Virus record (IMG/VR): IMGVR_UViG_3300035698_031273
Location: 43,070-107,069 of that record
Strand: one strand, 5' to 3'
Length of the DNA stretch: 64,000 bases
Source of the DNA: a virus
A model generated the notes under the pieces. It had not been told where the DNA came from, did not search any database, and saw only the letters and a program-made list of their open reading frames with translations. Positions 52,199 through 55,288 of this stretch are shown piece by piece. Within the stretch, counting starts at the first letter, position 1. The number at the start of each line of letters is the position of its first letter. A program made the position numbers and the translations under genes.

Positions 52199-53695
52199 AT
52201 GATGTCTGATGCTGATCGAAAGATAGAAGAACTGGAAGAACTGGCTGAACAAACTGTAAAAGAAAATGAAAAGGATTTGGAATCAATTGCTAACGAAAGT
52301 TTTCGTTTAGATTTTGCTGCCAATATACGATGTAGGCAACCCTTATTATATGTACTTAGTAACGATGAAAATAGATTTCTTCGTTTTGTTGAACTTTATA
52401 GTAAGGTTAAGGGTTATAAAGTTTTTGTTTGGGATGTCCATCGTGGTATTTTAAATTTACACACAGGGGAAGAAGAAGGGTCAAACTCTGAAGATATTAA
52501 AGACCCTGTTGCTATTTTAGACTATATAATTACAGAGTCTACAAAACATAAAAAATTAAAGCGTATAAAAGTAGGTAAAGATGATTATATCAAAGGTATT
52601 ATATTTATTCTATTAGATTATAATAGGTATTTGGAGGATGCTGGTCCTCAAATAGAGAGGAGACTTAAATGTATCTCTAATTGTGAGTCGGTTGTAATGA
52701 CTATTGTTACGGGATCTTATTATTCATGTACTCCTACTGTTGAAAAACTTTTTTCTATACTTGACTTTCCTTATCCTAATGACCAAGAGTTAAAAAGTGC
52801 TTTGTGGGAAGTTACAGAAAGTATAAGGGATGTTTTACCAGAGATTATTAAAAAAACAGAGAAAAGCGAAGAAGAATTAATAAAGTCAGTAATGGGACTT
52901 ACTCTTGGTGAAGCTCAATTAGCTTTTAGTAAATCTCTTATTTATCATCGGGATTGGAATATAAAAACCATTCTTAATGAGAAAAAACAAGCAATTAGAC
53001 GTTCTGGAATATTAGATTACTGTGAACCTAAATTTACTATTGAAGATATAGGTGGATTAAAAAATTTAATAAATTGGGTAAAGATACGCAAACATAGTTT
53101 TACCGATGAAGCAAGAGAATATGGCATCTCTGTTCCCAGGGGCTTGTTGATAATCGGGACATCGGGGTGTGGAAAAAGTTTAGCATGTAAAGCAATTTCA
53201 AGCTTATGGGGTATGCCTTTATTAAGATTAGATTTTGGCAAATTATTTGGTCAGTATGTTGGTACATCTGAACAAAATGCTAGAGATGCTATTCGTGTCG
53301 CAGAAGAGTTGGCTCCCTGCGTTTCTTATGATACAGATATATCTGTTAGGGATACTCTTGTCAATGATTATAATTATAAAGTTGGTCAAATATATGACGA
53401 CGATGAACTTAATAATAAATATGTTATAGATGGTGATACTGCTATCTCAATTTTGCGTTATCCACTTGAAATAGATGCATATGATATAGAAGAGAATAAA
53501 AAAGTTGTTTCTAGATTAAGAGCAATAATACGCAGAAGGATAGGTGATGGTAAAAAAACGTATAAAGTGACATTAGAAGATGGAACATTTGTAAAGGTTT
53601 CTGAGGATCATAAATTTTTAGTAATAGATAATAATGAAAAAAAATGGATGAAAATAAAGGATATTAGAGAGAATATGAGAATTATTACTTTGTAA
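52199..53695 (+). CDS. Ycf46-like AAA+ ATPase, N-terminal part (373 aa) fused to split-intein N fragment
   Basis: Ycf46-type N domain; DIGGLKNLINW; Walker A GTSGCGKS; LLRLDFGKLF..YVGTSE; AAA similarity stops at AEELAP and intein sequence follows. Confidence 0.9.
   Translation: MMSDADRKIEELEELAEQTVKENEKDLESIANESFRLDFAANIRCRQPLLYVLSNDENRFLRFVELYSKVKGYKVFVWDVHRGILNLHTGEEEGSNSEDIKDPVAILDYIITESTKHKKLKRIKVGKDDYIKGIIFILLDYNRYLEDAGPQIERRLKCISNCESVVMTIVTGSYYSCTPTVEKLFSILDFPYPNDQELKSALWEVTESIRDVLPEIIKKTEKSEEELIKSVMGLTLGEAQLAFSKSLIYHRDWNIKTILNEKKQAIRRSGILDYCEPKFTIEDIGGLKNLINWVKIRKHSFTDEAREYGISVPRGLLIIGTSGCGKSLACKAISSLWGMPLLRLDFGKLFGQYVGTSEQNARDAIRVAEELAPCVSYDTDISVRDTLVNDYNYKVGQIYDDDELNNKYVIDGDTAISILRYPLEIDAYDIEENKKVVSRLRAIIRRRIGDGKKTYKVTLEDGTFVKVSEDHKFLVIDNNEKKWMKIKDIRENMRIITL
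53318..53692 (+). other. Split intein N fragment (IntN, 125 aa)
   Basis: Block A CVSYDTDI starts at Cys374; block B region YKVTLEDGTFVKVSEDHKFL; ends WMKIKDIRENMRIITL then stop. No C-terminal HN. Confidence 0.9.
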
Positions 53696-53724
53696 ACATC
53701 AACAGTATACAAGGTGATAATATT

Positions 53725-54606
53725 ATGGTGAAAAAAGAATGTTTAAGTTGTGGAAAAGAATTTCAAGTTAGAAATTATAGGGCACAAAAAGGAAAATATT
53801 GTTGTCGAGAATGTGTTAATTTTGGAAAAAGTTTATATAAAAAATGTTTGTTTTGCTCTAAAGAATTTAGAGTTCATAAATCCTTAGAAAAAAGAACTAA
53901 ATTTTGTTCTAAGAAATGTAGAGAAGGTTATCAGAAAAGTAGACGAGAGATAGTTGTATGTGAACAATGTGACAAAGAATTTGAGGTAGTTTTTAGTAAA
54001 AAAGATAAATCTAGGTTTTGTTCTTATGAATGTAAAAAGAAATTTAATGATTCAGATACGGAAAAAGTGTGTGAGATATGTAAAAAGAAGTTTATAAAAA
54101 AGAAATGGCAGTTTAATAGAAGTAAAAAATTCTATTGTTCTAAGAAATGTTATAATACAAGATGTCCCAAAGTGTTTGTGAAGTGTTCGGGATGTAATAA
54201 AGATATGATAATATATCCCTCTAGAAAAAAATACTATAAAAATTTTTATTGTTCTAATGAATGTCGTTTAAAATATGGGTTGATTGGAAAATTAACAGAG
54301 AATAACAACTATAATCTTAAATATCAAAAATTTATAAGAAGTATAAGACATACTGAAAAATATTATGAATGGAAAAAAAAATGTCTTGAAAGAGATAAAT
54401 ATATTTGTAAGATGTGTGGTTCTATAAAAAAAATAACAGTACATCATATGGGTAAATCTATGTATAATTTTGTAATGGAACATAGTTTTGATAAAAACAA
54501 GATTTATAATGATCCTGTTTTTTTTAATATAAATAATGGGGAAACATTGTGTAGAAGATGTCATTTTTTAAAACATATAAAAAAAGGTGGTAATGATGCA
54601 AATTAA
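53725..54606 (+). CDS. Free-standing HNH homing endonuclease with five N-terminal CxxC...(F/Y)CSxxC zinc-finger repeats
   Basis: RDKYICKMCG...VHH...NNGETLCRRCHFLKH HNH core; own SD (AAGGTGA); lies between the two intein halves. Confidence 0.88.
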   Translation: MVKKECLSCGKEFQVRNYRAQKGKYCCRECVNFGKSLYKKCLFCSKEFRVHKSLEKRTKFCSKKCREGYQKSRREIVVCEQCDKEFEVVFSKKDKSRFCSYECKKKFNDSDTEKVCEICKKKFIKKKWQFNRSKKFYCSKKCYNTRCPKVFVKCSGCNKDMIIYPSRKKYYKNFYCSNECRLKYGLIGKLTENNNYNLKYQKFIRSIRHTEKYYEWKKKCLERDKYICKMCGSIKKITVHHMGKSMYNFVMEHSFDKNKIYNDPVFFNINNGETLCRRCHFLKHIKKGGNDAN

Positions 54607-54709
54607 AAAAATAGTAAAAATAGAAGAGTTGGACAACATAGAATATGTTTATGATCCTTGTTGTGATAATCCTCATAATTATATAGCAAATGGAGTGGTT
54701 AGTCATAAT
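54596..54709 (+). other. Split intein C fragment (IntC, about 38 aa)
   Basis: [38 protein letters not shown]: block F (VYD...HNYIANG), block G (SHN), +1 Cys at 54710. Confidence 0.92.
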
Positions 54710-55288
54710 TGTTGTCTTTGGGTTGATGAAATTGAAAAGGGTTTGTCAGGTTTACAAAGTAGTGGTGCTAGTGATAGTGGTACTACTTCTCGTGTTTTGA
54801 GTACATTTTTAACATGGATGCAAGAAAAGGTGGCTCCTGTTTTTGTAGTGGCTACAGCTAATGATCATAGTGCAATTCCTCCTGAATTTCAAAGGGCAGG
54901 AAGATTTGATGAAGTTTTCTTTGTGAATTTTCCTTCGTATATTGAAAGAATGGATGTCTATAGGGTTCTTTTAACTAGAAAAAAATACGATCCTAATAAC
55001 TTTGATTTAGAATTTCTTGCTAATAATTCTATAAATTATAGTGGGGCAGAAATGGAAAAATCTATAGACGAAGCTATGCTTATAGCTTTTATGGATAAAA
55101 AAAGGAAAATAACTAGTGAAGATATTGTTTTTTCCTTAAAAACATTTAAGCCTCTGTACGAAATGAGAAAAGAAGAATTTGATGCAATGACAGAATGGGC
55201 ATCTTCTCGTTGTTTAATGGCAAATTCTCCTGACGATACAAAATCATCGACCCTCAATATAAGAACAACGAGACAACTGGATATTTAA
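54596..55288 (+). CDS. Split-intein C fragment fused to the C-terminal part of the Ycf46-like AAA+ ATPase
   Basis: Start is likely the ATG at 54596 (or 54593) after AAAGGTGG. After SHN come [11 protein letters not shown] (Walker B), FVVATAN and [16 protein letters not shown] (sensor 1, Arg finger). Confidence 0.9.

Follow-up and report, generated by a model that had tools for sequence, protein, structure and literature searches.

A putative mobile split-intein cassette with a free-standing HNH gene in the Ycf46-like AAA+ ATPase gene of a probable jumbo phage

The DNA analyzed here, referred to below as the window, comprises the final 64 kb of the 107-kb IMG/VR record IMGVR_UViG_3300035698_031273, and contains a gene for a Ycf46-like AAA+ ATPase that is divided over two open reading frames (ORFs), with a gene for an HNH endonuclease between them. 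Our reading, to which we assign a probability of roughly 0.85, is that this jumbo-phage ATPase gene bears a mobile cassette composed of the N-terminal half of a split intein (IntN), a free-standing HNH gene and the C-terminal intein half (IntC), that the two intein halves trans-splice, and that the HNH enzyme homes. We infer trans-splicing and homing from strong comparative evidence, and the ATPase would be switched on only by the splicing reaction. The CheckV completeness of the record is 22%, and for a record of 107 kb the source virus is therefore probably a jumbo phage.

Gene layout and intein halves

The three ORFs are co-oriented and tightly packed: ORF1 (52199-53695, 498 amino acids (aa)), the HNH ORF (53725-54606, 293 aa) and ORF3 (from 54587 or 54593 to 55288, 233 or 231 aa), with a spacer of 29 bp (53696-53724) between the first two (Table 1). 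ORF1 covers model positions 1-60 of the 131 positions of the AAA family PF00004, and ORF3 covers positions 56-129 and also matches AAA_lid_3. The 568 positions of phrog_8638 are likewise shared out, with 17-369 covered by ORF1 and 365-555 by ORF3. In an alignment with uninterrupted homologs of ~552 aa, the exteins (373 + 192 = 565 aa) are colinear, with no gap or extra residue, the counterpart in P0003 reading ...APCCLWIDEIEKG, and the cassette lies after Pro373 and before the Cys with which the Walker B strand starts. The original prediction, made from the sequence before any database search, is thereby borne out in every coordinate (the three ORFs, the IntN start at 53318, the Asn/Cys junction at 54709/54710 and the total of 565 aa), in its placing of Walker A and Walker B on different polypeptides (ORF1 and ORF3, respectively), and in its expectation that the joined exteins would align to Ycf46-like homologs, the uninterrupted proteins being colinear throughout.

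The ATPase has the Ycf46-like architecture of a ~270-aa N-domain and one classic AAA+ module with Walker A and B motifs, Arg fingers and a lid. For P0018, an uninterrupted homolog (44% identical), the nearest ESM-Atlas clusters are named ycf46 (Uroviricota, Cyanobacteriota; TM-score 0.82-0.87 over residues 18-538), these names being automatic annotation. The ATPase module of P0018 is most like the Cdc48/p97 domains (E 2e-63). Isolate phages (INPHARED) contain homologs of the N-extein only, for example the AAA-ATPases of cluster O mycobacteriophages (27%), and none of these carry the intein.

Both intein halves are recognized by intein hidden Markov models. ORF1 matches TIGR01445 (intein_Nterm, 33.5 bits against a cut-off of 24.5) and positions 25-93 of PF14890 (35.9 bits against a cut-off of 35.8), and ORF3 matches TIGR01443 (intein_Cterm, 23.9 bits against a cut-off of 15.6) and positions 121-155 of PF14890. 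Cys1 (Cys374) and the block B His (His471) are invariant across 9 IntN clusters, and the terminal His-Asn and the following +1 Cys are invariant across 27 IntC clusters. With the models matched above cut-off and the catalytic residues invariant, the proposal that ORF1 and ORF3 carry the halves of a split intein holds, the halves being those of a class-1 intein. An RNA intron, against which the short spacers had been adduced, is indeed not detectable, as neither an intron nor any other RNA matched in an Rfam scan at E <= 1.

Among structures in the PDB, IntN matches the Npu DnaE intein (E 0.004) and, weakly, the gp41-1 intein (E 0.18). The best match of IntC is the gp41-1 intein (6QAZ residues 92-128, E 0.003), with the alignment starting in the opening residues of the gp41-1 C-piece. 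IntC is acidic (net charge -3); IntN is basic in its second half. The protein P0088 has a contiguous mini-intein at this site, with 44% identity to IntN and 64% identity to ORF3, and a short linker in it takes the place of the stop, HNH gene and start of the window; other contiguous relatives have a LAGLIDADG-type domain at this point. Because the linker of P0088 lies there and IntC aligns from the start of the gp41-1 C-piece, the split point is placed at the canonical endonuclease-insertion loop.

The reading frame of the HNH gene differs from those of both intein halves. Six HNH PHROGs match its product, the best being phrog_1271 ('HNH endonuclease', E 1e-22), and no Pfam HNH family matches at E <= 0.1. 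Across 24 relatives, C228, C231, H240, H241, G272, C276, H280 and H284 of the HNH motif are invariant, and N271 and C279 are present in at least 90%. A profile search against the PDB gave a weak match to 5h0m (E 0.045), and the AlphaFold2 model (predicted local distance difference test score 88.9) has the same structure, the HNH nuclease of phage GVE2, as its best Foldseek match (probability 1.00, TM-score 0.61, E 0.008), with further HNH nucleases ranking after it. Residues 6-180 form an array of five zinc-finger-like CxxC...C(x2-4)C units with a weak likeness to zinc fingers of the MYM/FCS type. The family is large, with 5619 representative clusters at E <= 0.001, only 16 of them at E <= 1e-30, and the only match among isolate phages (INPHARED) is from a Halorubrum virus, at 24%.

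Three further observations concern the intein itself. A class-3 intein was considered and rejected, given that Cys1 is invariant and that position 4 of block F is Asp. Three residues after this Asp, IntC contains an additional Cys (Cys24, window 54662-54664), which is invariant in 27 of 27 IntC clusters and also occurs in LAGLIDADG-type inteins of the same site (YDLSCE), gp41-1 having no Cys there in the alignment. One might guess at redox or metal control through this residue. A word search with IntN only returned just two clusters, too few to place the intein lineage in or out of other host proteins.

Table 1. Coordinates of the ATPase gene, the cassette and the interrupted relatives
Feature	Locus	Position	Strand	Description
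N-extein, aa 1-373	Window	52199-53317	+	N-terminal domain and first half of AAA+ module; ends AEELAP
Walker A, GTSGCGKS	Window	53156-53179	+	In N-extein (ORF1)
IntN, 125 aa and TAA stop	Window	53318-53695	+	Cys1 is codon 374 (53318); block B SEDH; ends RIITL before the stop
RNA hairpin	Window	53674-53727	+	Last IntN codons pair with Shine-Dalgarno AAGGTGA (53711-53717) and ATG of HNH gene
Free-standing HNH endonuclease gene, 293 aa	Window	53725-54606	+	Frame differs from both halves; own Shine-Dalgarno sequence and ATG
HNH core, aa 228-284	Window	54406-54576	+	CxxC...HH...N...CxxCH...H motif
IntC, 39 aa	Window	54593-54709	+	From ATG 54593; ends VVSHN; +1 Cys at 54710
C-extein, 192 aa and stop	Window	54710-55288	+	+1 Cys, Walker B CLWVDE (Asp-Glu 54725-54730), sensor-1 ATAN, lid domain
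Arg fingers	Window	54893-54904	+	In C-extein (ORF3)
Contiguous intein, 434-448 aa	L011	5126-6469		Exactly at the site of the window
Contiguous intein, 434-448 aa	L012	5033-6337		Exactly at the site of the window
Contiguous intein, 434-448 aa	L013	5045-6346		Exactly at the site of the window
Contiguous intein, 434-448 aa	L019	5123-6430		Exactly at the site of the window
Contiguous intein, 434-448 aa	L018	5675-6979		Exactly at the site of the window
P-loop split (G-PG/C)	L014	3950-6986		P-loop IntN only ~25 aa
P-loop split (G-PG/C)	L015			P-loop IntN only ~25 aa
P-loop split (G-PG/C)	L020	3926-7043		P-loop IntN only ~25 aa
P-loop split (G-PG/C)	L017	3983-6158		P-loop IntN only ~25 aa
P-loop split (G-PG/C)	L018	3956-7564		P-loop IntN only ~25 aa

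Independent copies, selection and movement of the cassette

The three-gene layout recurs in other contigs; among viral contigs, relatives were retrieved with an alignment query, a single-protein scan having found nothing. Over 9.5 kb, the metagenome contig L025 aligns colinearly with the window at 86.6% nucleotide identity; it shares all three genes with their stops and starts, and its near-duplicate L024 has the same stops and frames. The viral contig L003 has the same layout, with equivalent stops and starts, at identities of 39% for the N-extein and 49.7% for the HNH protein. Because the same stops and frames recur in these independent contigs, which come from other samples, the stop at 53693, where the original prediction had ORF1 end, is trusted as real. 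In addition, the protein database contains at least 8 further clusters that consist of the N-half with IntN and have a common end point (IITL), and ~27 clusters that consist of IntC with the C-half.

All parts of the cassette and the exteins are under purifying selection. In the comparison with L025, the ratio of nonsynonymous to synonymous divergence (dN/dS) is 0.113 for the N-extein, 0.156 for the HNH gene and 0.141 for the C-extein; the values for IntN (0.198) and IntC (0, with 100% aa identity) rest on few changes (5 nonsynonymous vs 6 synonymous, and 0 vs 2, respectively).

The cassette is far less diverged from that of L025 than its surroundings are. Synonymous divergence (dS) is 0.085 for IntN, 0.19 for the HNH gene and 0.11 for IntC, compared with 0.56-0.64 for the exteins and 0.34-0.63 for the four neighboring genes measured, and nucleotide identity is 95.8% in the cassette and 84.3% in the exteins (Fisher p 4e-27). 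At the cassette borders, identity tapers over ~100-200 nt into both exteins, as expected of co-conversion tracts. An extein tree was computed for the window and 19 loci, with L024 left out as a near-duplicate of L025 and with midpoint rooting for drawing only. In this tree, the window and L025 group (support 100/99) with alleles that lack this cassette, and L003 groups (support 100/100) with L017, which also lacks it. A recent lateral transfer of the IntN-HNH-IntC cassette fits these data, because the cassette is so much less diverged than its flanks and its distribution over the tree is patchy.

Proposed mechanism and competing explanations

The expression signals of the locus lie at the borders of the HNH gene. 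The hairpin over its ribosome-binding site has a minimum free energy of -18.5 kcal/mol (z -4.0), and none of 200 shuffled sequences folds as well. An analogous 14-bp hairpin, composed of different bases, covers the GTG start of the HNH gene in L003 (z -2.2), and the 29-bp spacer before the HNH gene is identical in L025. The heptamer AGTATAC, common to the hairpin loops of the window and L003, is not enriched in the window and is therefore not called a promoter. At the other border, the start of the IntC gene runs into the end of the HNH gene (stop 54604-54606), with an overlap of 14 nt when read from ATG 54593 and of 20 nt when read from GTG 54587; this GTG and ATG 54596 are alternative starts, and the Shine-Dalgarno sequence of the IntC gene, AAAGGTGG, lies inside the HNH gene. 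In L003 the two genes are separated by a 9-nt gap and do not overlap.

In the proposed mechanism, the two polypeptides would associate via IntN and IntC, Cys1 would form a thioester, the +1 Cys would attack, and the terminal Asn would cyclize, resulting in a normal Pro-Cys peptide bond. The product would be the 565-aa ATPase, with an active site present only after splicing. Upon co-infection, the HNH enzyme would cut cassette-free alleles, into which the cassette would be copied (homing). The hairpin over the ribosome-binding site and start would hold down translation of the HNH gene, and translation of the IntC gene would be coupled to the HNH gene's end.

Several points weigh against this mechanism. 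The residue at position -1 is Pro, and a Pro at this position slows many inteins in engineered contexts. The record represents ~22% of the genome, and an intact second copy of the ATPase elsewhere in it is possible. The selection values for IntN and IntC are subject to the small counts given above. With respect to mobility, high local similarity between the window and L025 is also seen in further stretches of the locus (e.g. 98% in 56100-56199), and general mosaic recombination, rather than homing driven by the HNH enzyme, could have moved the cassette. Since such short stretches elsewhere are unusually similar too, the HNH enzyme is not proven to be the driver of the transfer.

An alternative that we regard as improbable is that the ATPase halves assemble non-covalently and function without splicing, with the intein halves serving as a dimerization handle only. 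Phage genes in pieces that do without splicing exist, as in the nrdA/mobE case of phage Aeh1 (in the outline given in PMC2677866). However, mere docking would need none of Cys1, the block B His, the terminal His-Asn and the +1 Cys, which are invariant over 9 and 27 diverged clusters, and ~164 aa of intein would remain inside the ATPase core, where the Walker B strand begins. A target gene can be inactivated when a homing endonuclease gene inserts into it, and the HNH gene might accordingly have landed in a mini-intein and destroyed the ATPase, leaving a dead gene whose pieces are decaying. This is highly improbable: the exteins, IntN and the HNH gene have dN/dS values of 0.11-0.20, IntC has no amino-acid change, all motifs are intact, and the layout is kept between phages at ~40% extein identity and is represented by dozens of clusters of each half. 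Finally, in-frame HNH inteins occur in phages (bioRxiv 10.1101/2025.01.02.630785), but an assembly or sequencing artefact concealing one contiguous intein with an in-frame HNH domain is scarcely credible here, as the HNH gene lies in another frame with its own Shine-Dalgarno sequence and ATG, several TAA stops occur in the ORF1 frame between IntN and IntC, and identical stops and starts are found in L025 and L024, with equivalent ones in L003, all from other samples.

Surrounding genes, wider family and known systems

All long genes of the window except one are on the + strand. The divided ATPase gene lies within a replication-type module, in the order SF2 helicase, a gene of unknown function, IF3, the ATPase, an unknown 270-aa gene, DnaB and a DnaG-type zinc ribbon. 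Directly upstream of the ATPase, the phage encodes a two-domain translation initiation factor, IF3 (51696-52190; IF3_N 6e-18, IF3_C 4e-14), which is kept at this position in all relatives whose upstream flank was read (L003, L012-L014, L017, L019, L020 and L025). In the relatives with flanks read, IF3, the ATPase and the 270-aa protein again follow one another in this order, and DnaB comes next in L017 and L025. The 270-aa protein (55288-56100) is Cys-rich, has no Pfam or clear PHROG match, is always 3' of the ATPase in relatives with flanks read, and evolves faster than its neighbors (70% aa identity to L025, dN/dS 0.29). Further downstream are a stand-alone ORF of 207 aa with a DnaG-type CHC2 zinc ribbon and no Toprim domain (57571-58194), followed by an ORF without a Pfam match (58175-58729). 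Two tandem-repeat arrays with units of 69 nt (23 codons) that are 72-77% alike (58260-58477 and 58887-59161) lie among the short ORFs downstream of the zinc-ribbon ORF, and differ in copy number in L025. A promoter scan returned 29 sites vs 28.2 expected, and no DNA relative of the locus was found among isolate phages (INPHARED).

The wider ATPase family was surveyed in 18 jumbo-phage loci (contigs of 46-499 kb), with L018 entering two of the counts, as it combines a P-loop split with a contiguous intein at the Walker B site. The gene is uninterrupted in 8 loci, contains a contiguous intein in 5, is HNH-fractured in 1 (L003) and is split at the P-loop in 5. The contiguous inteins are labeled LAGLIDADG-type from motifs read by eye only (GLIDGGG, GMIDSNG), and Pfam gave no match to the central domain of these inteins (435-448 aa). 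Between the halves at the P-loop site, three loci (L014, L015 and L020) contain a free-standing gene with NUMOD3 and PD-(D/E)XK (TnsA/Vsr-like) domains, which is absent from the other two (L017 and L018). A complete ORF on a 1.5-kb contig, P0083 (293 aa), consists of the P-loop-site IntC, ~50 aa of extein and the Walker-B-site IntN, and appears to represent the central part of an ATPase in three pieces, which would need two trans-splicing reactions. P0088 has the same arrangement with its contiguous mini-intein at the second site. No relatives of P0083 were found among the viral contigs. From these comparisons, the Walker B site shows what appear to be several stages of the proposed intein life cycle, namely empty, full with a LAGLIDADG-type intein, reduced to a mini-intein, and split by HNH fracture. 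With several intein states at one site and a second, differently split site, the family is therefore a good natural system for testing the origin of split inteins.

It is conceivable, though unlikely, that the split acts as a conditional switch, such that trans-splicing, and hence ATPase activity, is gated during infection, with the intein being a natural fast splicer fitted to a -1 Pro and some relatives assembling a three-piece ATPase via two inteins. The gate could be the extra Cys of block F, acting with Cys1 and the +1 Cys through redox or metal control, or alternatively the expression of the HNH and IntC genes, which would be coupled and limited by the hairpin. If this were true, the intein would be useful as an orthogonal tool.

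The arrangement can be compared with several known systems. The gp41-1 N-piece is shorter than the 125-aa IntN of the window. The naturally split gp41-1 intein (PDB 6QAZ/6RIZ) otherwise shares with the intein of the window its split point, its acidic C-piece and a basic second half of IntN, and differs from it in host protein, in lacking the -1 Pro/+1 Cys flanks, and in lacking the invariant Cys three residues past the block F Asp. Inteins within P-loops and Walker B motifs of AAA+ proteins have been described in RFC-S, PolIII gamma/tau, MCM and LonB (Novikova et al. 2016, PMC4760082). The insertion here is likewise at the most conserved nucleotide-binding strands of the AAA+ module, but those inteins are contiguous and reside in cellular replication and protease ATPases, whereas the present intein is divided in two, is carried by a phage and has a classic-clade, Ycf46-like protein as its host. 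In the Aeh1 nrdA-mobE system (Gibb and Edgell 2007; Friedrich et al. 2007, as outlined in PMC2677866), a free-standing HNH gene likewise splits a phage gene, essential in Aeh1, and its translation is limited by a hairpin that sequesters the ribosome-binding site; by that outline, the NrdA halves assemble non-covalently without an intein, unlike in the window, where intein halves are present.

The closest known systems are the fractured genes of Dassa et al. 2009 (PMC2677866), who reported gp41, IMPDH, DnaE, NrdA, NrdJ, DNA ligase and terminase genes with nucleases that are GIY-YIG or Vsr-like, described hairpins at ribosome-binding sites and overlaps of 6-69 bp as features of such genes, and stated that HNH and LAGLIDADG nucleases could also fracture genes, an HNH case not having been observed. 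As in those genes, the window has two adjacent co-oriented ORFs with intein halves and a free-standing endonuclease gene between them, in phage or environmental DNA, a hairpin over the endonuclease ribosome-binding site, and an endonuclease 3' end that overlaps the IntC gene. Unlike in those genes, the host is a Ycf46-like AAA+ protein, outside their eight enzyme types, and the nuclease is an HNH enzyme with a zinc-finger array, not GIY-YIG or Vsr-like. In the literature searched, which left most subscription journals outside the search, neither an intein in a Ycf46-type AAA+ protein nor an HNH enzyme as the nuclease of an intein-fractured gene was found. The suggestion of the original prediction that the host protein and insertion site may be new thus stands as far as the papers searched are concerned, none of which describes an intein in such a protein, but not for the sequences themselves, as public protein sets already contain dozens of halves, one of them already named 'Hint domain-containing protein'. 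The fractured-gene arrangement itself is already known (Dassa et al. 2009), and the host protein and nuclease type are, in the literature searched, new to it; the GIY-YIG or Vsr-like nuclease type is a feature of the sample of Dassa et al. rather than of the arrangement.

The locus adds the Ycf46-like AAA+ ATPase of jumbo phages as a host, and HNH as a nuclease, to the fractured-gene arrangement. For applications, it supplies a split intein pair resembling gp41-1 that would, provided it is functional, work beside a -1 Pro and a +1 Cys. Nucleotide identity jumps by 11 points at the borders of the cassette, which constitutes direct evidence, from sequence, that composite elements of this kind are still transferred from phage to phage.

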